A DNA stretch of 32,000 nt from a cyanobacterium endosymbiont of Epithemia turgida isolate EtSB Lake Yunoko (GTDB lineage: Bacteria; Cyanobacteriota; Cyanobacteriia; Cyanobacteriales; Microcystaceae): NCBI RefSeq assembly GCF_000829235.1, contig NZ_AP012549.1, positions 1,170,001 to 1,202,000 of the forward strand, given 5' to 3'. The position numbers and the translations under genes were made by a program. Positions 966 to 30,327 of this stretch are shown here, piece after piece; position 1 is the stretch's first letter, and each line of letters starts with the position of its first letter. A model generated the notes under the pieces. It ran no database searches. It was given only the letters and a program-made list of their open reading frames with translations, and was not told where the DNA came from.

Positions 966-2105
966 CGAGAAGAGCCTTAGTGTTTTCTTTTACTAAAACT
1001 AGTGTACGTCAACGGGAAATTATCGAAATAGTTATCGGTAATAGCTGGCACTATATACGAGGGCTATTGACATTAGGAAAAGTTGATAAACCTCAAGTTC
1101 CCCCACCAGAGGTTTTACGAAATATTTTAGTAGAATTTGGTCCATTTTATCTAAAATAAGGACAAATTATTAGTACTTGTCCTGATATTCTTTCTCCTAG
1201 TTATATTAGAGTGTTAACTGCTCTACAAGCTAATGTTCCTCCTGTGTGTTGGTCTAAAATCGAAGAAATACTTTTCCAAGAATTACAAAAACTTTTAGAG
1301 AATATATTTCAAACCATTAATCATGAACCAATTGCAGCCGGTTCTATTGCTCAAATTTATCGGGACACTTTAATCAATGGAACCGAAGTGGCAATTGAAA
1401 TCCAACGGACAGGAATTGATATAATTGTTGCCGAAGATATTGCTTTAATTGAAGGAATTACTTAGTTAGTTTCTTTCACGGAGTTTAAACAAAATTATGA
1501 CATTGTTAAATTAATAGACGAGTTTGCTCGAGCTATTAAGTCAGAATTAAATTTTACCCAAGAGGGACACTATACCGAGTACATCAGCCGAAATTTAGCA
1601 ACGAGTAGCTGATTCGATACTAAACTAAATATTTAGTCGTTCCTCAAGTATATTGGGAAGTTAGCATGAAAAAAATTCTAGTTCTGGAATGGTTAAATGG
1701 TCAACCAATTCTTAATGTAAATTTCAGTATCACTCCTAGTCAGAAATCTCTTAAGAAGAGAAAACAAGAGATAACAACCTTACTATTTAGAGCTTTGATA
1801 TAAAATCTATTTATTTAAAAACTCCTCGGCAAATCGAGATATTATTAAATCGTTTATCCTCAGAAACTTTACAATGGAATTTGCGCATAAAAGAATTAAA
1901 TCTTCTAGGCTGTAGTGTTGATACTTCTGCTAATCGTCTATCTTGTAGTATCGTTTTAAGTTCATTAATTGTAGTAGTTGCTATTATTTATAATAATTCC
2001 AAAACTCAACAATTATATCTAATTAGTGTGGCTTTGTTTGCCGTAGCAAGTTTATTAGTAATGTGGTTACTTATTAGTATTTTAAGATCAGTACGTTTAA
2101 AGTAA
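966..2105 (+). pseudogene. ABC1/UbiB-family atypical kinase pseudogene (in-frame stops, frameshifts, internal deletion of the kinase core)
   Basis: Translation from ~980 reads RQREIIEIVIGNSW..LRNILVEFGPFYLK*GQIISTCPDILSPSYI..LQANVPPV..PIAAGSIAQIYR..EVAIEIQRTGID. This is the conserved ABC1 N-terminal half, broken by TAA at 1157-1159 (a Leu position in the KLGQ motif) and TAG at 1463-1465. The frame breaks repeatedly over 1600-1800. ORF 1881..2105 (NRLSCSIVLSSLIVVVAII..) matches the C-terminal transmembrane tail of cyanobacterial ABC1 proteins. Total length is ~1.1 kb versus ~1.7 kb expected, and the HADPHPGN core is absent. Confidence 0.8.
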
Positions 2106-3971
2106 ACGTTTTATTGTTTATAAAATTTTTTAAAAATAAAAACTAAGCTGTAATTTAGGTTAGATTACAATTAATTACCACTTATAATGTAAAAATATTA
2201 AATCATGTATATATGATTATACATTGCAAGGGAGAGCCTCCATAGATGGTTCAGGATTACTATGATAAATACAACTTTTTAAGCCAATGAGTATAACTAG
2301 TTTTTTATTCATAAATACTTGTAAATTTTTAGGTAATAAATTTAATAATTGATTACCTAAAGACTAATAATTTTCTACTAATTTTTTAAAAAATATAGAT
2401 AGTTAAGCAACTATAGAACTGTATATAAATTCTATTTTTATTTTTAGCTATGAGTTCATCTAAGTTTGAGGGCACGTTCAAAAAACTTCTACAAAATTAG
2501 AATTGTCAAATTATGACAATAAATTTCAGTATTTTAGTATATATTTAGCAGTACTATTCAACAGTACGTGGCGTATATACTATTTTTTTATTTATTTCAG
2601 CTTCTAAAAGATTAAAAACTAATCAATATTATTCTCTTTTTTTATCTCAAAAAAATCTACAACTCTAGCCTCTGAATAAACAGCTTTTTTTAAAAACCCT
2701 AAATCATATTTATATTCAAAATTTTTTTAAAAATCGCATAAATTTTTACTTTATTTCAATATTTTTCTATAAAATTTATTTCTGAACTATAAATTGAAAC
2801 AAAAAATAAGTATAATTATTATTTCAATTGTTTTGCTTTTATTTTAAATAAATAATTAATATTCATTAAATCATTGCAAATGATAATTACAGTATCTATT
2901 CTCTTGTTTTTCTCTTTATTTAAATATTTTTATTTAGAGTAGTTAATCTTTTATTAAGTTCATATATTTCTATTGTATTTAGTGATCTTTATTTTACTTA
3001 TTAGTTAATTTTATAATCTTTTTATGACCTACCTGCTTTATCTGAAATTCTTTTGAAATTTGTATGAAATGATGAAAATGATGAATTGACCGGTCATTAA
3101 ATTTATTTAAACTTCTATTTTCTTGTATTAAAGATAATATTTATACTCTTATTGTTACCCTAAGAAAATATTAAATACAAGTTTATTTACTATCATGTTG
3201 TCTGACTTTTTAGGTAGATTTATATCTAATAATCAATCTTTTTAAAAGTAAATTAATTTAAATTAATCTACTTACTTATTTTTTATATTCTAATTAAATG
3301 TTTACTTAGAAACAACTATATATTATTTTTAATATCTAGAAAAAATACTATTTTTTTAAGGCTAACTAATTAAATAGTTTATTGTTTAGTTTATTGTTTA
3401 TTTTAATATTTTTGTATAAAGTAAATATATCCTCCTACTACGTCATTATTTGGCCTGTCAATCCGGGAAAATAAATTCGTTGCATCATATCCTTCTAGCC
3501 ATAGAAACTTATTTATTAAAGTTAACATTGTTGATTGTTAAAGAAAAGATATTTAATCTGGTATAATTTTTTTTGTACTTAAGTCTTTTATTACCTTTCC
3601 TAAAGGGGGTTTATATTTTTATTATCTCTTACTTTACTAATTTTAGATATTATTGGAAATATAATAATTATTTACTATAAATTATTTAATAAGCTTTTTG
3701 ATAAATATTGGAAAATCTGATATGGTTAAAAGTTTTTTATTTTTTTTTCACCTTTGCTAAATTAAGAGATTTTTTGTCTTCCGTTTATACAATTTAACTT
3801 TCTGCTTATAACGATTGATATCACAAATCACTATTATCCACCAGTTATAATAATTCCATTGTTCTTGACATTGACTTTATGAATATCATCTTATTTATTT
3901 TTTTAACAAAAAAAGAAATATGATATTAAGTTGATAATCAATAGTTATTGGCATTTTGTCAGAATAAAAAA

Positions 3972-5084
3972 ATGAATTTAAATCGTCGTAAATTTTTAAT
4001 TACTAGTGGAGGTTTATGTGGGTTAAGAATTGCTTATTCAACCCATCCAGGATTAAGAAGTGAGAATATAAACTCTCAACTCCTATCTACCCCCATTCAA
4101 AAATACAAAGAGACCTCGATTTCTTACCCTGTAGCCGTTGCCCCTCCAGGATTATTTGCTCCTATACGAGGAGATACTAGAATTATTGTCATTAGCGATC
4201 TTAATAGTCAATATGGGTCTACTACTTATGAATCAGAAGTTAAACAAGCAATCACCCTTATTCCAGGATGGAAACCTAACTTAGTATTGTGTGGGGGGGA
4301 TATGATTGCTGGACAAAAAAAATCTCTTACTAAAACCCAAATTCAAGCCATGTGGTCAGCTTTTGATGCTAATATCAGTAATCCTTTACGTCATTTTAAT
4401 ATTCCCTTCGGGTTTACCATCGGCAACCATGATGGATCAGGAGCAATTTATCAAGGAAAATATACTTTTGCATCTGAAAGAGAATTAGCCTCAAATTATT
4501 GGAATCAACCGACCTCTAATCCGGGATTAGACTTTATTGATCAAGTTAATTTTCCTTTTTATTATAGTTTTATTCAAAATAATGTTTTCTATCTAGTTTT
4601 GGATGCTTCTACCCATATTATCTCCTCTGAGCAGTTAACCTGGATTAAAAAGAATTTAGCAAGTTCCATCGCACAAAAAGCTAGATTGAGACTGGTTATT
4701 GGTCATCTTCCTCTTTATCCTATAGCTGTAGGACGAAATGACGTAGGAAATTTTTTAAGTAATGGAGAAACATTACAATCAGTGTTAGAACAATATAGAG
4801 TGCATATTTATATTAGTGGACATCATCACGCCTATTATCCAGGAAAAAAAGGCCGATTAGAATTACTTCATATCGGTGTGTTGGGAGCAGGTCCCAGGAA
4901 GCTACTAAACAGTAATATCATTCCCAGCAAAACCTTAACAGTAGTTGATATTTATCTAAATTCTCAAACTATTAACTATACGACCTATGATATGAAGACT
5001 CTGGAAGTTGTCGATATTAAAACATTACCTAAATGCATTGGCAAAGTGCGGCGTAGAGATCTTATGGCTGGCTCAAATTCCTAA
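3972..5084 (+). CDS. Calcineurin-like metallophosphoesterase with a twin-arginine (Tat) signal peptide
   Basis: ORF 3948..5084. The ATG at 3972 gives MNLNRRKFLITSGGLCGL, which fits the Tat consensus RRxFL followed by a hydrophobic stretch. Metallophosphoesterase motifs present: ISDLN, GGDMIAG (GD), TIGNHD (GNHD), IGHLP, SGHHHAY (GHxH). Confidence 0.8.
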   Translation: MNLNRRKFLITSGGLCGLRIAYSTHPGLRSENINSQLLSTPIQKYKETSISYPVAVAPPGLFAPIRGDTRIIVISDLNSQYGSTTYESEVKQAITLIPGWKPNLVLCGGDMIAGQKKSLTKTQIQAMWSAFDANISNPLRHFNIPFGFTIGNHDGSGAIYQGKYTFASERELASNYWNQPTSNPGLDFIDQVNFPFYYSFIQNNVFYLVLDASTHIISSEQLTWIKKNLASSIAQKARLRLVIGHLPLYPIAVGRNDVGNFLSNGETLQSVLEQYRVHIYISGHHHAYYPGKKGRLELLHIGVLGAGPRKLLNSNIIPSKTLTVVDIYLNSQTINYTTYDMKTLEVVDIKTLPKCIGKVRRRDLMAGSNS

Positions 5085-9229: not shown

Positions 9230-10132
9230 TTATTGTAATAATTTATGTTGAAGTTGGGAACTAGGAACTTAAGTTTTCACTAGTAAAAAATTAGCAGTAC
9301 TGGGGAACGTCTGTAATCCTTTAAGGTCTGATAATATTTTCAATAAACTTTTTTTGCTAGCAACTAACCAAGACCAAGTTTGCTGTTGAAACTCGTGATC
9401 ATTAATTACTGCCTCTCCCACAGCTGCCGCTAAGCTATTAACAGACCTCTCGCGATAATTACCATTGTTGGAGACGATAAGGATGGGCGATTATCCAAAT
9501 TTGGTGAGTAATCGTATAATCACTAAATTTGGATAATCGCCCATCATCGGAATTAAGCTTTGTTGCTCATGAGGGGGGAAAAAGTCCATAAAGGACTTAT
9601 AAACCACTACTAAAGCAAATTTTTCCAGTAAGGGTAATAAAATATCCCTATGAAATAACTTTCCTGTGGGATTATGGGGATTGTTGATGATCACTCCGCT
9701 CAATTGGGGGTTAACAGGGTCTAAGTTCAGAAAAAAGGTTTTTCTTTTCCAAGAGAAAGGGCAAGACTTTACCTTAGCACCAAATCCTTGTAGAGCGCGC
9801 CAATAGTCCCAAAAACCAGGAACTATTAAGTAAGTGAGCTTTAGATTAACTAATTCTCGGACTGCCCCGGTTAATAGTTCAGATGCTCCATTACTAGGAA
9901 CAATCCAATCAGGTGAGATGTTATGTAATTGTCCTAAGGCTAATCGCAATCGAAGATAATGGCGAGCAGGATAATGGGCAATAGCGGTTATTCCTTTCTA
10001 AAAAGCGTTAATCGCACTGTTGGGAGGTCCCAAAGGGTTAATACTAACAGAAAAATCTATAATAGAAGTGACTGGACAGCCTGCTTGATTCGCTGCCCAG
10101 GTTAAGTTTCCTCCATGGATAGGCCGTTTCAT
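9230..10132 (-). pseudogene. cobD: L-threonine-O-3-phosphate decarboxylase pseudogene (CobD in Salmonella naming, CobC elsewhere; class I/II aminotransferase fold)
   Basis: Minus-strand reading from ATG 10132 gives MKRPIHGGNLTWAANQAGC..IIDFSVSINPLGPP, then an in-frame TAG (plus-strand cta 9998-10000). ORF 9491..9949 follows in the same frame with NNPHNPTG, degenerate YKSFMDF (DEAFMDF expected) and LLTKFG* ending right after the PLP-lysine motif. Downstream homology continues in shifted frames (IIAHPYRLQQW, then SVNSLAAAVGEAVINDHEFQQQTW..STANFLLVKT*). Confidence 0.8.
9482..9545. repeat. Perfect 21-bp inverted repeat (about 26 bp with one G-U) inside the cobD pseudogene, at its premature stop
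   Basis: gatgggcgattatccaaattt (9482-9502) is the exact reverse complement of aaatttggataatcgcccatc (9525-9545). The arms extend inward through ggtga/tcact. The 12-nt centre is gtaatcgtataa. Confidence 0.9.
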
Positions 10133-11289: not shown

Positions 11290-11826
11290 ATGAGTGAAAT
11301 TCAATAATTAAGGACTTGTTATTGTTAATACCAGTAATGGGAAAGACAAAACCACAGCCGCTTTTTGGATGCTTATAAGACCCCTTGGACATGGGTTCCG
11401 AGTGGCTGTCGTCCAATTCATTAAAGGAACTTGGGAACTTGCAGAAAAAGAGGTACTAAGTCGGTGGGGGACCGACTAGAATTTTATGCTATGGGGGAAG
11501 GATTTACATGGGAAACCCAGGATCAAGAACGAGATATTGAGAATGTCCAAGTTGTCTGGGAAAAAGGGTTATCTTTTATTTGTAACAAAAAGTATCGATT
11601 AGTGTTACTCGATGAAATTAATGTTGCCTTACAATTGGGCTATCTCGATGTAAATACGGTTTTAAAAGGACTGTCCCAAAAACTAAACTGTCCACTGCTC
11701 ATGTTATACTGACAGGAGGCGGTACACCCCTTGATAGAAAGGGCAGACTTAGTGACGTAAATGACCTTAATTAAACATCCTTTTTAAAAACAAGGGATTA
11801 GAAATCAACCAGGGATTGAATTTTAA
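11290..11826 (+). pseudogene. cobO: Cob(I)yrinic acid a,c-diamide adenosyltransferase pseudogene (CobO/CobA/BtuR family)
   Basis: Fragments in shifting frames: [42 protein letters not shown] (P-loop GNGKGKTTAA degraded to SNGKDKTT), GEGFTWETQD, YRLVLLDEINVAL, then LIERADLVT*MTLIKHPF*KQGIRNQPGIEF*. There is a stop 5 codons after the ATG, at least one frameshift near 11460, and at least 3 in-frame stops in the 3' part. Confidence 0.85.
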
Positions 11827-14307: not shown

Positions 14308-14748
14308 AAGGACTTCAAGTAATTACTCGTTATCAACAGAAGATCGAACAAAAGTTAGTGAAACTAATTGATAAAATTTTACTTCGTAATAATTATTGGA
14401 GCGAACCGATTAACGACCAACTAAAAAACATCTATCAGATTTAATTTGAGAAAAATTGAAGCGTTTGAGACTATTATGTTCAATTTTAAAATTAACCGAT
14501 TACTTATTACCTGTTTACCTCAAAAATATTCTCCCAATTGAGGTTAAAAAGAGAAGTTAACCTCGCTTCTTGATATGTCTAAACAAAAATTGTAGTCTTA
14601 TATTGTTGGCGGTTACCATTTCAGAGTTAGATAATCGTCAACTTTGTTGTGTTTTGACTTAGGTATTGAGAATAACAAAAGTATTTTTAAATCTTATATA
14701 ACTCATATACTCAATCAAATGATATGATTTTAAAAGGGGTTACCCCTT

Positions 14749-15083
14749 GGGGCTGTGGCTCAGTAGGATAGAGCAAGCGCCTCCTGAAGTGTCGGGCATC
14801 ATGGACGGAAACGCCATAGATGGATGTGGTCAAATTCAAGGAAGCCTAAGTCTTCTTAAAGATAAGGTAATCTTGAGCCAAGCTCTAAGTCCCTGGTAGA
14901 GAAGGTGCAGAGACTGGTTGTAGGTCGCCAAAGGGACACAAAAACAATAGGGCTAATCATGTCTACAACATAACGGCCACCACCTAAGGACATCAAGTCT
15001 AGGGTGAAGGAATAGTCCAGAGAGTGAGGAAACTCACACTAATCTGAAGCGCTAGGTCGCCGGTTCGAATCCGGCCAGTCCCG
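14749..15083 (+). tRNA. tRNA-Arg(CCU) gene interrupted by a group I intron (exon 1 14749-14785, exon 2 15047-15083)
   Basis: Joined exons give a 74-nt cloverleaf. Acceptor ggggctg/cagtccc (one G-U), D arm gctc-agtaggata-gagc with G18 G19 A20, anticodon arm agcgc-ctCCTaa-gcgct, variable loop aggtc, T arm gccgg-ttcgaat-ccggc, discriminator G. CCA is not encoded. Confidence 0.9.
14786..15046 (+). ncRNA. Group I intron (IC3-like, tRNA-intron type), 261 nt, no internal ORF
   Basis: It is inserted right after U36 (5' splice site follows a U) and ends in G (..aatctG). It contains the conserved IC3 core strings known from the Azoarcus and cyanobacterial tRNA introns: ggtcaaattc..gaagcctaag, aatcttgagccaagc, gaaggtgcagagactgg, ccaccacctaagga, gaaggaatagtccag. 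Confidence 0.88.
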
Positions 15084-15402
15084 TTAACCTGTCAGTAAGT
15101 CTCTATCAAACAGTAACTATAGAGAGAATAATATAATATTATTCTAAGCGTTATCCATAATTGAGCACTCAATTTTTTGGTTTAAGCTCAGATACGAGTC
15201 ACAAACATCGATGGTTTATGGCTCATGATTAACTTTTATGTGAATTTTTGTAAAGATCTAATGACTTTAATATAGTGTTTCTCAGGAATGGGAAGATTGA
15301 GGTATACCCTAATTTATTTCCTGTTGCCTAAAATTTAAAAAGTTTTGTATTTCATCAAATATGCTTTACGGCTATCCCAATTAGTTTGATAGTTCCATTA
15401 TT

Positions 15403-16503: not shown

Positions 16504-17955
16504 GTGACACCCAGAGTTCGTATTGCACCAAGTCCCACTGGAAATCTACACATTGGAACTGCAAGGACAGCTATTTTTAATTGGTTATTTGCTCGTCATC
16601 ACTGGGGGCAATTTATTTTACGCATTGAAGATACGGATCTTGAGCGATCAAGACCAGAATATACGGAAAATATTAAATCAGGACTCACTTGGCTAGGGTT
16701 AAATTGGGATGAGGGTCCCTTTTTGCAAACCCAACGCTTTGATCTCTATTGTCAAGGAATTCAAACCTTACTTGATAAGGGGTTTGCTTATCGTTGCTAC
16801 TGTACTCCTGAAGAATTAGAAAAAATGCGGGAGGAACAAAAAGCAAACAATCAAGCTCCTCGCTATGATAACCGTCATCGTCATCTCACTGAAGCAGAAT
16901 GTCAAAAGTTTGAATCTGAAGGTAAAAAACCTGTTATCCGTTTTATTATCGATGATAACCGTGAAATTGTCTGGAATGACTTAATCCGAAATAAAGTAAC
17001 CTGGAGAGGAAAGGATCTCGGTGGGGATATGGCAATTACTCGCATCCCTCAACTTGAAGGAGAGTCATTTGGACAACCCCTATATAATCTAGCTGTGGTA
17101 GTTGATGACTTAGACATGAAAATTACCCATGTCATTCGGGGAGAAGATCATATTGCCAATACAGCAAAACAGATTTTACTTTATGAAGCGTTAGGGAAAA
17201 CAGTTCCAGATTTTGCTCATACCCCCCTTATTTTAAATCAGGAGGGAGGAAAACTGTCTAAACGCGACGGAGCATCATCTATTGATGACTTCCGTAAAAT
17301 GGGTTTTTTACCCGATGCTCTCGCCAATTATATAATGCTCTTGGGTTGGACTCCCCCTGACTCCACTAAGGAAATTTTTACTTTAAGTGAGGCCGCGAAA
17401 GAATTTAGTTTAGAAAGGGTAAATAAAGCGGGGGCAAAATTTGATTGGGGTAAACTAGATTGGATTAATAGTCAATATCTCCATCAAATTCCAGCCTCGG
17501 AATTAGTTGAGCTAGCTTTCCCCTATTGGAAAGAAGCGGGTTATGAAGTTAATCTGGAAAGTGATCGTCCTTGGTTAGAACAGTTAGCAGCTCTAATTGT
17601 CCCCAGTTTAACTAGGTTAACTGATGTAATAAAAGAGAGCCGTTTATTGTTTGGCAACACACTTAGTTATAGTAATGAAGCTCTAGAACAATTGCGAAAA
17701 GAGGGAGTCAAAGATATCATACAAGCTGTGGTTGATAATTTAGCTAATTATCCTCAGTTAAGTGAAGACAATGTAAAGGAGATTATCAGGCAAGTTACCG
17801 TAGATTTTAAGATCAAAAAGGGTTTAATTATGCGCTCTCTCAGAGCCGGTTTAATGGGTGAATTACATGGTCCTGATTTAATTAAATCTTGGTTTTTATT
17901 ACACCAAAAAGGATGGGATATAATCCGTTTAAAAGAAAGCTTAAGTCAAATCTAG
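16504..17955 (+). CDS. gltX: Glutamyl-tRNA synthetase
   Basis: [28 protein letters not shown] (HIGH-type motif), [21 protein letters not shown] (KMSKS-type motif), full length 483 aa. It has a GTG start with aggag 8 nt upstream. Confidence 0.95.
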
Positions 17956-17979: not shown

Positions 17980-18012
17980 AGGAGCGTAATTTATTACATC
18001 TCCTTTAGTTTT
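17980..18012 (+). terminator. Weak candidate terminator after gltX
   Basis: aggag-c-gtaat-tt-attac-at-ctcct is an imperfect two-part stem. It is followed by ttagtttt and begins 25 nt after the stop codon. Confidence 0.35.
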
Positions 18013-18299
18013 AAAAGTTAACGTTCGAGTTTTTATTAATTTGATTAAATATTTTTTAATCTTGACTTGAGAAAAAGTGATTCTGGAATATCTTGTAAAG
18101 CAGATAAGTCTTTTTTGCGGAGTTGACAGCTTTAGGATTAAAGAAAAAATAAACCTATTTATGTATTTTCTTCAGAAATTGACTCTGATAGTAGAAAACC
18201 TGTTAGTTAAATTTTTGAAAAAAACCTTCAATAATTTTACTGAAGTAGCAGAGAAATAAATCTTTAATCATAATTTTTATCTGCTTAATTTTTCTGTAT

Positions 18300-18334
18300 A
18301 ATATTTAATATTTAATATTTAATATTTAATATTT
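18300..18334. repeat. Heptanucleotide microsatellite (AATATTT)x5
   Basis: Five exact tandem copies, counted by hand. Confidence 0.95.
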
Positions 18335-19057
18335 ACGCAAACCTATAAGATTTAAAATATAAACAGATAACAATCTTTTTAAGAACTATTTATAGTATAG
18401 TATCGAAAAAAAATATAAGTTTTGTTAGTGTAAAGAAGATAAAAATTTTTTAAAATATTAAACATTATATTTGCTACTAATTTATTTGTAAATTAGCAAT
18501 CATTACTATTATTATAGAAACAATAATATTATCAGCTAGATTGCCATAAGACTTCAAGAAATACTGTATTTCTTTGGAGAAAGGTAAGAATTAAAAGAGT
18601 CATTAGACTCTTTTATATAAAAATAAAAAATATAGAAATAAAATTTAATTGCTAATAATAGACTGGCTATAAATCATAACTATAAATCAGATAAAACTCA
18701 ACATTGCCACTTTATTTATATCTATAGCATCAAATATTTCAATTAGTTTAATGAATGGTATTCTAAATTTAGAAAAATTTACTATTGTCCACTATCAGAC
18801 TTAAAATAAGATAAGAACAGATTAATTTATTTAAAAAATTAACGTAACAACAATTGGCATTTATCTTGGCTTAACTATTTTAAATTAATTCCAGATAGAG
18901 AGAGCTATCTATCTCAAAATAGATGTAATTTTTAAACTAATGTAAAAATTAATTTAGAGAATTGTCAGGCTAACTTTAAAAAATACTAAAAAAGAACAAA
19001 AATTACTAATGATATGAAAAAGTACCTCAGATATAAAAATAATAATCAATCTAGTAT

Positions 19058-20152
19058 TTAAAGAAATCTTTTTAAAACCTCTAAAGTGGAATTTCCAGTT
19101 TTTTGCCAACTGAATTGACTAGATTGTTGTAAACTCAAAGTTTTTAACTGTGATCGTAACCCATCATCATTGATAATTTGTTCCATTGCATCCGTTATTT
19201 CTGATACCTGATAAGGATTAATTAATAATCCCGCATCTCCTGCAAGTTCAGGGAGAGAAGATGAGTTAGAAGTAATCACAGGTGTTCCACATCCCATTGC
19301 TTCTAAAACTGGAAACCCAAATCCTTCCCATAAAGAAGGAAATACTAATGCTAATGCTTGATTTAATAGAATAGGCAATTGATTATAGGAAACGTAATCA
19401 AGAAATTTAATTTGATTTCTTATTCCTAATTCAGTTGCTTGTTGTTGTAATTTGGGGGTATAACGTTTATCTGTTTGCCCCGCTAACCAAAGTTCATAAT
19501 TTTGATAATTCCTAATTCCTGCAAATGCTTTAATTAAACGGGATAAATTTTTATGGAGATCATGACGACCTAAATAAAGGAAATAGGGTAAACTAGTCTT
19601 GGATCTTATTTTTTTTTTAAATTTTAACGGACGAAAATGATTTGAATTATAAGCAAGAAGAATAGGAGTTATTTTCTTAGCAGAAATCCCAAAAAAATCA
19701 ATAATATCTGTCGCTGTTGCTTGAGAATTACAAAGAATATGTCTAGCTTGTTTTAAAACTTGTGGAATGTAATTCTTGAAATAAGGTGTTAGAGGGGAGT
19801 TCTTTTTAGGGAAACGCAATGGAATTAAATCATGTACCATGACGACGGATTGACAGTTAGTGTACAATGGAGCTTCAGGAACTGGTGAAAATAATAATGA
19901 ACCTTCTAATTTTTTATAGATTTTTGGTAACTTAAACTGTGTCCATAATAATCTACGAAAATGACCTACAGTTCCTTGTTCTGAAGTTAAATTTTTAGGT
20001 ATTAAATAGCAATTAAAGTTATAATTATTTTGGGCTATTAATAATGTAGGATTTAGGTTTGTAAAGTAAGGAAAAATGCTATCAGCATAAATAGTAATGC
20101 CTGTCGGTTTAGACATCAACATAGAAAGATTAATAAACAAATTTTTTGCCAT
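19058..20152 (-). CDS. Glycosyltransferase, GT-B fold, family 4/1 type
   Basis: C-terminal domain signature FPSLWEGFGFPVLEAMGCGTPVITSNSSSLPELAGDAGLLINP (EX7E motif). It is the last gene of the operon. Confidence 0.85.
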   Translation of the reverse strand: MAKNLFINLSMLMSKPTGITIYADSIFPYFTNLNPTLLIAQNNYNFNCYLIPKNLTSEQGTVGHFRRLLWTQFKLPKIYKKLEGSLLFSPVPEAPLYTNCQSVVMVHDLIPLRFPKKNSPLTPYFKNYIPQVLKQARHILCNSQATATDIIDFFGISAKKITPILLAYNSNHFRPLKFKKKIRSKTSLPYFLYLGRHDLHKNLSRLIKAFAGIRNYQNYELWLAGQTDKRYTPKLQQQATELGIRNQIKFLDYVSYNQLPILLNQALALVFPSLWEGFGFPVLEAMGCGTPVITSNSSSLPELAGDAGLLINPYQVSEITDAMEQIINDDGLRSQLKTLSLQQSSQFSWQKTGNSTLEVLKRFL

Positions 20153-27217: not shown

Positions 27218-28105
27218 ATGATTAATTCCCTAAAAGTCGGCTTAGTCCAGCACAGCAACACAGAAGATTTAGATATTAACCTAGAAAAAAGTAGTCAGGG
27301 AATTCTGCAAGCAGCTGCAAAAAATGCTCAATTGATTATTTTGCAAGAACTCCACAGAAGCCTTTATTTCTGTCAAACAGAAGATTTTTCTTCGTTTAAC
27401 TTAGCAGAAACTATTCCTGGTCATTCTACCCAAATTTTAGGGCAACTAGCACAAGAATTAGGGGTAGTAATAGTTGCTTCTTTATTTGAAAAACGAGCAA
27501 CCGGTTTGTATCATAATACAGCAGTTGTTTTAGATAAAGATGGTAAAATTGCAGGAAAATATCGGAAAATGCATATCCCTAATGACCCTGGTTTTTGCGA
27601 AAAATTCTATTTCACCCCTGGAGACTTAGGATTTGAACCAATTAACACCTCTGTAGGACTCTTGGGAGTCATGGTTTGTTGGGATCAATGGTTTCCCGAG
27701 GCAGCACGGTTGATGGCCATGAAAGGAGCGCAAATACTAATCTATCCAACGGCGATAGGTTGGGACTCTAGAGATAGCCAAAACGAGCAAATCAAACAAA
27801 AAGAGGCTTGGATTATTGCACAACGCGCCCATGCTATCTCTAATGGTATTCCTGTCATTAGTTGTAACCGTGTGGGATATGAAGCTAATACCAGTGGTAA
27901 AACTGAAGGAATTCTTTTTTGGGGTAATTCCTTTATTGCGGGTTCTCAAGGCGAAATTTTAGCACATGCAAGTGAAGATAAAGAAGAAGTAGTTACAGCT
28001 ACAATTGATTTACAATACTCGGAAACTGTACGCTGCATTTGGCCATATTTACGTGATCGCCGCATCGACCATTATCAGGATTTACTTAAAATTTATAGAG
28101 ATTAA
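27218..28105 (+). CDS. aguB: N-carbamoylputrescine amidase (nitrilase superfamily)
   Basis: LKVGLVQ, ILQELH (catalytic Glu), YRKMHIPNDPGFCEKFYFTPGD (catalytic Lys), GVMVCWDQWFPEAAR (catalytic Cys), ILIYPTAIGW. Confidence 0.9.
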   Translation: MINSLKVGLVQHSNTEDLDINLEKSSQGILQAAAKNAQLIILQELHRSLYFCQTEDFSSFNLAETIPGHSTQILGQLAQELGVVIVASLFEKRATGLYHNTAVVLDKDGKIAGKYRKMHIPNDPGFCEKFYFTPGDLGFEPINTSVGLLGVMVCWDQWFPEAARLMAMKGAQILIYPTAIGWDSRDSQNEQIKQKEAWIIAQRAHAISNGIPVISCNRVGYEANTSGKTEGILFWGNSFIAGSQGEILAHASEDKEEVVTATIDLQYSETVRCIWPYLRDRRIDHYQDLLKIYRD

Positions 28106-28188
28106 TCATTTTTATTTTAGCTATAAACCTTTTATTTTCTTCGTGTTTATGTGTCTAGAGTGTTAAGTCTCAAACTCTTATTTTTATT

Positions 28189-28437
28189 TTATTTGATTAC
28201 ATTAGTTTCTCGCCGTTTTTGAATGTAAGTTATTAAACAACCACTCATGTAACGTCCGTAGTTATCGAGGTTATTTTGTTGTATTTTGCATTCAAGAGAC
28301 ATGAAAGTTTTCACTAATGCGGAATTCCTCAACATTACTGTTGCAGCGAGAAAAATGTAGTTACAGAAGACAGTAGTAGTTTTGTTTACTTTAGGGGTAG
28401 TGAAAACTATTTTAGTTACTCCTCCTTTTATTTTCAT
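28189..28437 (-). pseudogene. Orphan 82-aa ORF, possibly a heavily degraded IS200/IS605-family tnpA relic
   Basis: This is an island of higher G+C inside a 2.4-kb AT desert. KIVFTTPKVNK faintly recalls the YHxVWxxKYR N-terminal motif. NYIFLAAT..SALVKTF....KIQQNNLDNYGRYMSG...TYIQKRRE faintly recalls DHVHLLVS..S.LV..LKG.SSRKLQQEFP.LKKRYWG....YI..Q. The HUH motif is not intact. This is a speculative call. Confidence 0.2.
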
Positions 28438-30327
28438 GCTTTTACCATAGGAGGTACTTTAGAATGGTGTCATACTAAATATGATTTCTATACTCTCCCG
28501 GAAAAATATAGGAAATTTAACTCATTATTATTGGTTAAATATATAATTTTTTATTGTGTTTCTTGCAAAATATTCATTAACTTAAAACTCATACAGTAAC
28601 GTCCATTATCTTTCTAGGAACTGTAATCATGAAGAGTAAATTAGGAAATACTCTCTAAAAATCCCTGAAATAATCTTTCTCTTTTTACTATAGCGCCATC
28701 TGGCATTATCTTTTGGGAAAAAATATAGATATCTTTATGTTTTTAGTTAAATATTCACCAACTGAATTCAGTTATTTTATATTCACTTTTATAATCTTGT
28801 TCCATAAAAGTTCTCCTGTTAATAGGGTTACAAATTTATAATTATATGACTATTTATAGCAGACAGTTTTGTCTGGAACTTCAACTCTTTTTTCTTATAT
28901 ATTTATCAAAACCTACATATCTGTTTTAGCTTCTAGATATATTTCTTTCAGTTTATTAAATTCCGAGAGTATTTTGTAAATAAATCTTTTTTGTTTAAGG
29001 TATTTTATTTCTATTTTTTAGCCTTAAAAACTAAAAAAGCATCTAATTTTTCCAGTAATAAATATCATCTTTATGTATTATTAATTCATGATCTTTTAAA
29101 ATTCTTTTTTCGAAAAAATATTTTAAATACTTTATTTATAAACCACTTTTTTTAAAAAAATATAATATTCTTAATTATATAAATAAAATATTTATTTTTA
29201 AACACTTCTTTTTTTTTAAAAGTAGACTTAAATACTTGGCTAAATAAAATTTATAAACCTGTTATCAGTTTTATAAAAACCCTTGCAAAAGTTGCGCATT
29301 AACTTTATTAAAAGTCTCAATTATAAACTTTTTTTAACTTTTACCTTGCTGCTCTAAAAAGTATATGGGTTTTAAAAATGCGTTTCTGTTACTGGAATTT
29401 AAAAGTTAAGTGTACGGTGTTTCTTTAATCTAGTGACACTTAATCTTGGTAGCTGTATATTACAATTACCTATAATATTAACTATATCAAGTGGTTTATC
29501 CAAGAATTGTCATCAGTGTATTAGTAAACAAAATCGTTTTTTTAACTAAAATATATATTTTGTGAGGGAAGCTATATATAAAATAAAGTAAATACAGTGG
29601 CTACCTTTACCCAAGAAAATATTCATTTAGTAACTTTTAAAAAATTGTGATTAATATTTTTTAAGAGCTAAATAACAAGTACTTAGTCTTGATTAAGCTA
29701 GAAAATTAAGTATATTTAACATATAGTAATATTTTTATATATAACAATTTTATTATAACTCCAATAAACTTAATAACGATAGTTTTTATAAACTACACAA
29801 TAATAAGATTTATACTTTTGTATATATGGGACACGTAAGAAAAAATAAAATTTTGCAACTTATACCGGTTGAATCTTATTTAACTAAATAAATTACTATC
29901 CAATATCCTAAATCCTATTACATAACCTTCATTCCTCATAAAATATATGAACTCGTTCCTTAAATTCTTGAATAATATTTATCTACTATTTCTAATTCTG
30001 ACGGATTAATTACCCCTATTTATATAGGTTATTTTAAAGGTTTTTATTCACTTGGGCATTAATATCTAATATTTTTTAATCATCAGCTTTTTATTCAAAA
30101 TTTATTTAATAAAAAGTATTAAATTTTATTAAAAATAATAATTAATTAATATTAGTAGTAATAACAGTTTTTATGGCAGCTACAAAAAATAAAATAGTAA
30201 TCAAAATAATTGTTAATAGATACTCAAATAAACCCCAAAAACGTTAATATTTTTTACTTAATTTTACCCTAAAAAATTTTTTAAAAAATAAAAACATACA
30301 GAATAATCTCTTAGAGAAATCATCGTA

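Follow-up and report, generated by a model that had tools for sequence, protein, structure and literature searches.

The spheroid body of Epithemia turgida, a nitrogen-fixing diatom endosymbiont, very probably possesses a functional tRNA-Arg(CCU) gene, the decoder of AGG, that is split by a compact IC3-type group I intron inherited vertically and held under purifying selection. In the window, that is, the whole 32-kb stretch of DNA analysed, direct reading of the sequence showed that the gene is split by a 261-nt intron and that the spliced exons comprise 74 nt. When introns were allowed, ARAGORN reported tRNA-Arg(cct) i(39,261) at 14748-15084, with junctions identical to those read directly. 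The initial annotation had proposed this host, intron length and junctions, with insertion after U36, U(-1) and a terminal G, all of which were confirmed by the two approaches. The gene is composed as follows.

14749..14785, + strand: exon 1 of tRNA-Arg(CCU), 37 nt, 3' end ...CUCCU (ARAGORN, spliced and with introns allowed); 5' strand of the acceptor stem, D arm, 5' strand of the anticodon stem (14776-14780), C32, U33 and anticodon CCU (14783-14785)
14786..15046, + strand: group I intron, 261 nt, first base G, last base G, IC3 architecture, without ORF
15047..15083, + strand: exon 2 of tRNA-Arg(CCU), 37 nt, 5' end AAGCGC (ARAGORN); A37, A38, 3' strand of the anticodon stem (15049-15053), variable loop, T arm, 3' strand of the acceptor stem and the discriminator G

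The intron boundary is unique, as any shift yields a different tRNA from the joined exons. ARAGORN identified the joined exons as tRNA-Arg(CCU), with a clean cloverleaf whose anticodon loop reads CU-CCU-AA, whose D loop contains A20 and whose discriminator is G73, and the minimum free energy structure given by RNAfold was this cloverleaf (-32.1 kcal/mol); CCA is not encoded in the gene. A splice site after U33, with GCCU pairing with GGGC, was rejected because no exon 2 beginning with CCUAAG exists. By default, ARAGORN found zero tRNAs across the whole window, and the earlier warning that tRNA finders may miss the gene thus holds; in a sister genome, a gene caller had predicted a spurious 50-codon ORF covering exon 1 and the first part of the intron (L001 4136-4288). 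A scan upstream of the tRNA gene returned promoter-like sites that were only consensus matches (7 found, 3.8 expected), and a scan for an intrinsic terminator of the gene found none.

The assignment of the insert to group I was borne out by Rfam RF00028 (Intron_gpI), which matched 14773-15039 on the + strand. The match spans the whole model (1-253), and its score of 74.8 bits (E = 1.9e-17), against a gathering score of 50 bits, is far beyond chance. This was the sole Rfam match in the window, and orthologues of the intron scored 70.5 and 67.5 bits. The intron lies between U36 and A37, i.e. after the fifth nucleotide of the anticodon loop (CUCCU / intron / AA), and U(-1), the intron-terminal G and the AA after the intron were present in 96/96 split tRNA-Arg(CCU) genes among the matches listed. 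The tRNA-Arg host, the site after the fifth loop nucleotide, U(-1) and the terminal G are those of Arg.5Ug, which is placed in subgroup IC3 and counted with three others as the classical tRNA introns of bacteria (bioRxiv 10.1101/2020.01.27.920355). As expected of IC3, the fold is compact, contains P2, has no large extension of the P5abc kind, and carries GNRA tetraloops L2 and L9 together with receptor-like motifs in P8 and P5, the motifs being read from the sequence and the contacts predicted. The Azoarcus and Synechococcus ribozymes have no P7-P3 extension, whereas the intron has a 53-nt hairpin there (14917-14969); this hairpin is a peripheral addition to the IC3 core and no ground for exclusion from IC3. 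Because the literature already lists Arg.5Ug among the classical bacterial tRNA introns, the intron is a further example of a type long known in bacterial tRNAs.

The secondary structure was modelled as P1-P9 (63 pairs) and evaluated for covariation in 44 cyanobacterial homologues. Its elements are the following.

14783..14796, + strand: P1 hairpin, exon CCU (14783-14785) with internal guide GGG (14794-14796), loop AGUG
14797..14822, + strand: P2 hairpin with GAAA tetraloop L2 (14808-14811), double changes at 7/7 tested pairs
14826..14831, + strand: P3 5' strand GUGGUC, partner 14975-14980, 100% paired, double changes at 2/5 pairs
14835..14877, + strand: P4 enclosing P5; P4 is 14835-14841 with 14871-14877, 99.7% paired
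14845-14853 with 14860-14867, + strand: P5, inner stem with three double-changed pairs
14878..14905, + strand: P6, 14878-14879 with 14904-14905 and 14883-14887 with 14897-14901, 100% paired, 4/5 inner pairs double-changed
14888-14896, + strand: loop L6, sequence AGUCCCUGG
14910..14915, + strand: P7 5' strand G-A(bulge)-GACU, partner 15014-15018, pseudoknot with P3, guanosine-binding helix
14917..14969, + strand: extra hairpin in the P7.1 position between P7 and P3', 53 nt, stem 14917-14923 with 14963-14969
14975..14980, + strand: P3 3' strand GGCCAC (covariation alignment)
14983..15004, + strand: P8 hairpin, inner stem with three double-changed pairs
15014..15018, + strand: P7 3' strand AGUCC (covariation alignment)
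15024..15037, + strand: P9 hairpin GUGAG / CUCAC with GAAA tetraloop L9 (15029-15032), 100% paired
15043..15046, + strand: 3' tail UCUG, whose last base is the terminal G (15046) present in 96/96 homologues listed

Across the 44 homologues, the model was paired in 97.1% of cells, with both-side changes at 28/63 pairs; 0/500 shuffles reached any of the observed covariation measures, and slid controls were paired in just 32-42% of cells. Each core helix was paired in 89-100% of cells. The pairings P3-P8, on which the initial annotation had staked its reading beforehand, were all recovered, and double changes gave covariation for P3, P5, P6 and P8 but not for P4 and P7, which, like P1, are invariant and compatible with the model. 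All five pairs of P7 were unchanged in 44/44 sequences, and this helix is therefore consistent with the model yet uninformative on covariation. RNAalifold independently recovered P3-P6 and P8, and added three outer pairs to P2. Compensatory changes were also seen in P9 (alignment columns 300/309, G-C to A-U in 12 sequences) and in the anticodon stem (14778/15051, C-G to U-A in six homologues).

P1 consists of just three exon pairs and two intron pairs. The exon pairs (U14785.G14794 and two C-G pairs) were invariant in 44/44 sequences, and at the 5' splice site U36 (14785) and G14794 form the U.G wobble. The intron pairs (G14786-C14793 and A14787-U14792) were added by RNAalifold, and this extension covaries, the first intron base and the base 5' of GGG being G-C, A-U or G.U in the 96 introns listed. 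The Rfam P1, with nine pairs of which several are mismatched, was replaced by this 3+2-bp helix on the basis of the sequence and the family alignment, and inspection of the same two led to replacement of the Rfam P6, which was off by one. No convincing pairing of the 3' exon with the guide region (P10) was found. RNAalifold predicts that 15043-15045 can pair with 15019-15021 in an invariant, P9.0-like manner. Tetraloop-receptor-like motifs were read from the sequence in P5 (CCUAAG 14845-14850 with UAAGG 14863-14867) and in P8 (CCUAAG 14983-14988 with UAGGG 15000-15004), and both GAAA loops were invariant in the 44 sequences. From these motifs and the covariation, we infer L2-P8, L9-P5 and L6 tertiary contacts, the L2-P8 type of contact having been described previously (PMC11571812).

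The intron was compared with six seed introns of the Williams 2020 alignment by pairwise alignment score; percent identity was dropped, as it is misleading because the aligner opened many gaps. The best score of the six, 122, was obtained with the Azoarcus olearius tRNA-Ile2(CAU) intron (Aol6.Ile2.5Ug, IC3), the five others scoring 42-95. The likeness to the Azoarcus intron that had been noticed from the sequence proved to be real: once the extra hairpin is removed, the two are colinear (211 vs 208 nt). They share insertion after anticodon-loop nucleotide 36, the order and size of P1-P9, a 3-bp exon part of P1, P2 and P9 capped by GAAA loops, P5 and P8 bearing CCUAAG receptor motifs, and a single P9 hairpin followed by a short 3' tail. 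The spheroid-body intron differs in its host, Arg(CCU) instead of Ile2(CAU), and consequently in its internal guide, GGG instead of GUG, in being AU-rich in contrast to the GC-rich Azoarcus ribozyme, and in the addition of the 53-nt hairpin between P7 and P3'.

The insertion site matches that of the alphaproteobacterial tRNA-Arg(CCU) intron, as had been proposed for Agrobacterium, in which it was first described; self-splicing in vitro and splicing in vivo are known in Bartonella (PMC7717549). Host tRNA, U36/A37 site, U(-1) and terminal G are all alike in Agrobacterium tumefaciens and Bartonella bacilliformis (BbgpI), whose Arg.5Ug introns are listed as IC3 (bioRxiv 10.1101/2020.01.27.920355) and whose host gene is likewise missed by tRNA finders (PMC7717549). 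However, the Arg.5Ug seeds Rur1 and Bbo3 have a longer, multi-helix 3' domain and lack the P7/P3 hairpin, and they scored 80 and 73, respectively, vs 122 for Azoarcus Ile2.5Ug; by pairwise score only, the described alphaproteobacterial tRNA-Arg introns are thus not the closest relatives. The cyanobacterial and plastid tRNA-Leu(UAA) intron (Leu.3Ug; Synechococcus PCC 6301 'Syn Rz') likewise places an IC3 core in the anticodon loop of a cyanobacterial tRNA, and alignment located the shared core strings that had been suspected (UCAAAYUC...GAA.CC...GAGCCAAG...GGUGCAGAGACU), but it differs in host tRNA, in its site between positions 34 and 35 and in its 3' domain (score 95).

The stem of the extra hairpin was recovered by RNAalifold, with double changes at 6/7 pairs. 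Its inner loop AGGGAC (14932-14937) is complementary to GUCCCU (14889-14894) in L6, and loop-loop covariation was observed, suggesting that the hairpin loop is most likely base-paired to L6, which would add another clamp. The hairpin is missing from the Azoarcus intron and from many other tRNA-Arg introns, and is common to the Cyanothece, Crocosphaera and Xenococcaceae relatives of the intron. A tentative proposal, possible rather than probable, is that in Cyanothece, Crocosphaera, Xenococcaceae, Pleurocapsa and diatom spheroid bodies the tRNA-Arg(CCU) intron represents an IC3 ribozyme of the Azoarcus type that carries a so far undescribed module at its periphery, a P7.1-position hairpin whose loop kisses a covarying L6. 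If so, the hairpin-L6 pairing would be a third long-range clamp beside L2-P8 and L9-P5, could let an AU-rich minimal ribozyme fold, and would provide a natural case in which the small group I scaffold that has been studied best gained a module. In the literature searched, no account was found of IC3 introns in which L6 contacts a hairpin at the P7.1 position, though one may exist elsewhere. A P7.1/7.2 extension has been placed in the IA2 intron td, not in the Azoarcus and Synechococcus IC3 ribozymes (PMC4498298). In phage T4 td, P7.1/P7.2 is a two-helix domain packing on P7-P3-P8, whereas the hairpin of the spheroid-body intron is single, contains a small inner stem, sits on an IC3 core and has a loop covarying with L6; no homology between the two is implied.

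The initial annotation had left undecided how frequent such a gene is in cyanobacteria; a genome scan showed it to be common, with at least 95 more tRNA-Arg(CCU) genes that are split, the majority in cyanobacteria, and also met this intron type in proteobacteria, Paceibacteria and others. The intron occupies the same locus in six other spheroid-body genomes, among them those of Rhopalodia sterrenbergii, R. gibberula and R. gibba, plus uoEpiScrs1 and SU2. The order sigma factor, tRNA, DUF218, gltX is retained in the three Rhopalodia spheroid bodies and uoEpiScrs1; in SU2, the stretch examined spans tRNA, DUF218 and gltX only. DUF218 is also downstream of the split tRNA in Cyanothece sp. UBA12306. 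Upstream of gltX, the genome of Rippkaea orientalis PCC 8801 (L004) is rearranged and holds neither tRNA nor intron; this locus is therefore uninformative on the presence of the intron in that genome. A second split gene called by ARAGORN in L097 (tRNA-Phe, 342-nt intron) has no Rfam support and is treated as a false call.

Considering the established chemistry of the group I family, we infer that the gene is expressed and that the intron actually splices and is self-sufficient without protein. Once the precursor RNA is transcribed, the intron would fold into its P3-P9 core, in the manner of the Azoarcus tRNA-Ile intron (GAAA on P2 and P9, receptor-like CCUAAG in P8 and P5) plus the P7/P3 hairpin, and P1 would present the U36.G14794 wobble. 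Free guanosine in P7 would attack after U36 (14785), G15046, the last intron base, would next occupy the guanosine site, and the freed 3' end of U36 would attack after G15046, joining CCU to A37. The anticodon stem (14776-14780 / 15049-15053) probably holds the exons together in place of a P10 helix, and RNase P, 3' trimming and CCA addition would complete the tRNA.

The intron might instead be a relic that no longer splices, the tRNA being a pseudogene and AGG being read by another tRNA such as tRNA-Arg(UCU). The genome is indeed pseudogene-rich, in agreement with the decaying context that had been recognised, and two pseudogenes, cobA (11312-11823) and an aminotransferase (9677-10132), lie within 5 kb. 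However, across the six other spheroid-body lineages the intron retains 90-97% identity, more than the adjacent DUF218/gltX coding sequence (82-94%) and far more than the flanking intergenic sequence (62-88%); substitutions preserve pairing, as at 14806/14813 in P2, C-G to U-A in homologue L003; the core helices, U(-1).G and terminal G are all intact; and the mature tRNA is identical to that of the free-living Cyanothece sp. UBA12306. Decay is thus very unlikely, and a functional gene remains the preferred reading. Purifying selection is held to act on its intron, since without splicing the tRNA would be of no use. The earlier view that retention in a decaying genome is notable was right in that the tRNA needs splicing, but retention is expected rather than surprising, since loss would take an exact deletion and the demand for the tRNA persists: AGG occurs 19 times among the 4572 codons of the window's long ORFs, in 13 of 15 of these ORFs, with four occurrences in gltX.

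A functional gene would also be compatible with an intron that is removed in vivo with the aid of a protein or chaperone, possibly host-supplied, and is group I by descent but not an autonomous ribozyme. The short P1 and the AU-rich character of the intron (48% G+C in the Rfam match), compared with the GC-rich Azoarcus ribozyme, point in this direction, but no element of the predicted stabilising periphery is missing, from the GAAA loops L2 and L9 and the receptor motifs to the additional L6 clamp. Moreover, protein-free splicing or cleavage is known for IC3 relatives, the Bartonella tRNA-Arg intron (PMC7717549) and the Azoarcus and Synechococcus ribozymes (PMC4498298), making such dependence unlikely. 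As for descent, a recent horizontal acquisition by the endosymbiont lineage, instead of inheritance from a free-living ancestor, would accord with the occurrence of the intron type in proteobacteria, Paceibacteria and others. Going by their titles, the classic papers Paquin 1999 and Biniszkiewicz 1994 argue that bacterial tRNA introns are sporadically distributed and laterally transferred, which also counts for such a transfer. Yet identity drops with host distance, from 97-90% among spheroid bodies to 79-83% in the free-living Cyanothece and Crocosphaera homologues (~83% to Cyanothece UBA12306, ~80% to Crocosphaera and Xenococcaceae); the tRNA-then-DUF218 locus is common to many cyanobacteria; the extra hairpin is also found in free-living relatives; and the intron has no endonuclease ORF. 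Recent transfer is thus extremely improbable, and sequence comparison indicates vertical inheritance from a free-living Crocosphaera/Cyanothece-like ancestor.

Published spheroid-body genomes were assigned 39 tRNA genes by tRNAscan-SE (PMC5638926). As tRNAscan-SE was not built to detect group I introns (PMC8450103), the AGG-decoding tRNA-Arg(CCU) is probably missing from that count. No mention of introns in spheroid-body genomes was found in a limited search of the literature, although they may be described elsewhere. The findings leave the known working of group I tRNA introns unchanged. The clade offers dozens of natural Azoarcus-like ribozyme variants with the putative hairpin-L6 contact, a modest, testable structural lead. 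The tRNA-Arg(CCU) group I intron appears widespread and vertically stable in cyanobacteria and under strong constraint even in a gene-shedding genome, and inferences on codon reading or tRNA import in young organelle-like endosymbionts should include the split tRNA-Arg(CCU).

The spliced exons of the split gene form a 74-nt RNA identified by ARAGORN as tRNA-Arg(CCU), with the regular cloverleaf, anticodon loop CU-CCU-AA, A20 and discriminator G proposed in the initial annotation. The 261-nt insert follows U36 and its last base is G, as described there, and the splice boundary is fixed, any shift no longer yielding tRNA-Arg(CCU). With introns allowed, ARAGORN returned the same gene with the same junctions, confirming the split gene claimed at 14749–15083; at default settings it reported zero tRNAs in the whole 32-kb window, in keeping with the suspicion that standard tRNA finders may miss the gene. 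In the covariance-model comparison that had been suggested, the Rfam group I intron model matched 14773–15039 over its full length (74.8 bits against a threshold of 50, E = 1.9e-17), and no other Rfam match was found in the 32 kb. The earlier finding is real and its interpretation correct: as bacterial tRNA introns go, this one is ordinary and belongs to a class that is classical and widespread. The parts of the split gene are as follows.

14749–14785, tRNA-Arg(CCU) exon 1, 37 nt, read from the sequence
14917–14969, extra hairpin, 53 nt, between P7 and the 3′ strand of P3
15047–15083, tRNA-Arg(CCU) exon 2, 37 nt, read from the sequence

A model comprising helices P1–P9, the anticodon stem and the extra hairpin was drawn on the window, and its pairs were counted across 44 cyanobacterial homologues aligned with MAFFT. 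Standard pairs were formed in 97.1% of cells and two-sided changes occurred at 28 of the 63 pairs; none of 500 shuffles equalled any observed measure, and sliding the 3′ partners by 1–3 columns lowered pairing to 32–42%. Double changes were present in the anticodon stem, P2, P3, P4, P5, P6, P8, P9 and the extra hairpin, and P1, P7 and most of P4 were invariant. RNAalifold recovered the same helices without the drawn model, adding two intron pairs on P1, three outer pairs on P2 and a short P9.0-like pairing beside the terminal G. The P3–P8 pairings, on which the initial annotation had staked its reading, were thus recovered.

Across 80,413 bacterial genomes, one survey reported 5292 intron-split tRNA genes and four classical types, all of group I subgroup IC3 (Leu.3Ug, Arg.5Ug, fMet.2Ug and Ile2.5Ug), with the highest frequency, 0.69 per genome, in cyanobacteria (bioRxiv 10.1101/2020.01.27.920355). 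The window intron is of the Arg.5Ug type, inserted after the fifth nucleotide of the anticodon loop of tRNA-Arg; this type was discovered in Agrobacterium, and a Bartonella example, whose host gene is likewise unannotated, self-splices in vitro (PMC7717549). The window intron without its extra hairpin was aligned pairwise to six introns of the survey's seed alignment, giving scores, which are not a phylogeny, of 122 for the Azoarcus olearius Ile2.5Ug seed, 95 for the cyanobacterial tRNA-Leu seed Sel1, 80 and 73 for the Arg.5Ug seeds Rur1 and Bbo3, 65 for a second tRNA-Leu seed, Ncf2, and 42 for the tRNA-fMet seed. The likeness to the Azoarcus tRNA-Ile intron noticed earlier thus holds, with the top score of the six. 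The two are colinear (208 nt in Azoarcus versus 211 nt) and share their architecture, including a single P9 hairpin and short tail. By this pairwise comparison, the intron combines the insertion site of alphaproteobacterial Arg introns with the architecture of the Azoarcus intron.

Species-representative genomes were scanned with a pattern anchored on the anticodon loop and core strings, yielding at least 119 loci; in 93 of those listed, ARAGORN with introns allowed found tRNA-Arg(CCU) split after U36. Hosts among the matches listed were mostly cyanobacteria (Microcoleus, Okeania, Moorena, Lyngbya PCC 8106, Prochloron, Pleurocapsa, Xenococcaceae, Crocosphaera and Cyanothece), the remainder including beta- and gammaproteobacteria, Paceibacteria and others. 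Together with the window and loci from two other genomes of spheroid bodies (cyanobacterial endosymbionts of diatoms), those of Rhopalodia sterrenbergii (L001) and uoEpiScrs1 (L003), these 93 gave 96 distinct introns of 204–349 nt, all 96 with a preceding U, a terminal G and a following AA. The L001 and L003 introns scored 70.5 and 67.5 bits, respectively, with the Rfam group I model, and the window shares with both loci the gene order sigma factor, split tRNA, DUF218 and gltX (glutamyl-tRNA synthetase). In the close free-living relative Rippkaea orientalis PCC 8801 (L004), an ABC transporter replaces the sigma factor, tRNA and DUF218 upstream of gltX. Intron identities to the window are as follows.

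Intron identity to the window
R. sterrenbergii spheroid body (L001): 97%
R. gibberula spheroid body (L100): 95%
R. gibba spheroid body (L055): 95%
uoEpiScrs1 (L003): 93%
SU2 (L122): 90%
Free-living Cyanothece sp. UBA12306 (L071): 82.6%
Several loci of Crocosphaera and Xenococcaceae genomes: 79–81%

The mature tRNA-Arg(CCU) is identical in the window and Cyanothece sp. UBA12306. Many cyanobacteria that are only distantly related carry a DUF218 gene directly downstream of the split tRNA-Arg(CCU) and in the same orientation (L071, L072, L081, L101, L103, L012, L038, L043, L047, L068, L077, L104, L120 and others), and this linkage is old and stable. Because intron identity drops with host distance and the locus is shared, the comparison points to vertical descent of the intron from a free-living ancestor.

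In IA2 introns, T4 td among them, the position of the extra hairpin is taken by P7.1/P7.2, elements absent from the two model IC3 ribozymes (PMC4498298). At this P7/P3 junction, many other tRNA-Arg introns, for example in Microcoleus, Moorena, Lyngbya and gammaproteobacteria, have only 12 nt (AGACGGCCACCA), as does the Azoarcus intron. In the 44 homologues, the hairpin stem covaries, with double changes at six of seven pairs. A purine-rich segment of its loop, AGGGAC (14932–14937), is complementary to GUCCCU (14889–14894) in L6, the loop of P6, and complementarity is kept elsewhere through other sequences (GCUCC/GGAGC, ACUCC/GGAGU, UUGCUGU/ACAGCAA, CUCUG/CAGAG, UUCCUG/CAGGAA and ACCCC/GGGGU). 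The L6 partner lies 5–10 nt inside the hairpin interior in 34 of the 44 sequences. The longest Watson–Crick run averaged 5.18, against 4.10 ± 0.14 with partners permuted among genomes and 3.81 ± 0.13 with the hairpin interior shuffled, a mean matched by no permutation or shuffle, though these figures are not probabilities because the controls ignore relatedness. That so many different motif pairs stay complementary argues for a real loop–loop contact. No description of it was found in the literature searched, coverage of which is incomplete, and it constitutes a small structural lead. Unusually long tRNA-Arg(CCU) introns, of 349 and 323 nt, occur at L011 760–1184 and L065 630–1028, the extra length in L011 being a bigger insertion at the P7/P3 junction.

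We propose the following scenario for splicing. Free guanosine would attack after U36, held in the U·G wobble of P1, and the terminal G would next enter the same site, with ligation of the exons, following the two-step chemistry summarised for the group I family (bioRxiv 10.1101/2020.01.27.920355). The exon part of P1 is CCU (14783–14785), paired with the guide GGG (14794–14796), and the first base of the intron and the one 5′ of this guide covary as G-C, A-U or G·U across all 96 introns. A P10 helix was sought in the window intron and none was found; the anticodon stem (14776–14780 with 15049–15053) probably aligns the exons in its place. Exon base-pairing in the anticodon stem is reportedly needed by an Anabaena pre-tRNA intron. 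GAAA loops cap P2 and P9, and CCUAAG motifs lie in P8 and P5, an arrangement that matches the tetraloop–receptor contacts typical of IC3 introns (PMC11571812). We infer that the intron splices, that it does so independently of proteins and that these tertiary contacts form.

The main importance of the finding concerns annotation. The 39 tRNAs published for spheroid-body genomes were obtained with tRNAscan-SE (PMC5638926), which was not built for detecting group I introns (PMC8450103). In the R. sterrenbergii spheroid-body assembly, a 50-codon gene without a Pfam match was called across exon 1 and into the beginning of the intron (L001 4136–4288); it is probably a spurious ORF, called because the split tRNA went unrecognised. 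ARAGORN with introns allowed found no split tRNA at pattern matches L008, L009, L023, L027, L030, L033, L042, L056, L059, L061, L074, L084, L087, L088, L099, L107, L111 and L113; these may be split tRNA-Arg genes that it overlooked, since a DUF218 gene lies near several (L023, L027, L042, L087, L088, L111 and L113). Its odd split tRNA-His(atg) and tRNA-Leu(aag) calls in L046, L054 and L116 probably stem from intron boundaries being misplaced in split tRNAs of gammaproteobacteria, and a tRNA-Phe with a 342-nt intron beside tRNA-Arg (L097 4880–5315) is probably a false call because that stretch has no group I match in Rfam. Outside cyanobacteria and proteobacteria, the scan pattern also matched tRNA(CAU) genes split before the anticodon by 282–297-nt introns (L018, L034, L040 and L108, Nitrospirales; L090, Pyrinomonadaceae), which resemble the fMet.2Ug or Ile2 types.

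The spheroid-body chromosome of the diatom Epithemia turgida has 2,794,318 bp. Window G+C is 33–36% in most stretches and 0.33–0.39 outside very AT-rich patches at 2001–4000, 18001–20000 and 28001–30000 (0.21–0.26, few long ORFs); these patches probably represent intergenic or pseudogene DNA that has decayed. Genes near the intron are as follows.

9677–10132, aminotransferase pseudogene with an in-frame stop
11312–11823, cobA/cobO (cobalamin adenosyltransferase) pseudogene with a frameshift and several in-frame stops
16504–17955, gltX, protein identical to an E. turgida spheroid-body protein

Both damaged genes are undamaged in the sister spheroid bodies L001 and L003. These pseudogenes bear out the description of the genome as decaying, and 225 pseudogenes are recorded for it in a published comparison (PMC5638926). 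Compared with five other spheroid-body genomes (L001, L100, L055, L003 and L122), the window shows nucleotide identities of 99–100% in the exons, 90–97% in the intron, 82–94% in DUF218 and gltX coding DNA and 62–88% in flanking intergenic DNA, region-by-region values that make selection directly visible. AGG is in use (19 of 4572 codons in the long ORFs of the window), and therefore an AGG reader is needed. That the endosymbiont keeps the intron is as expected under purifying selection on a tRNA it needs.
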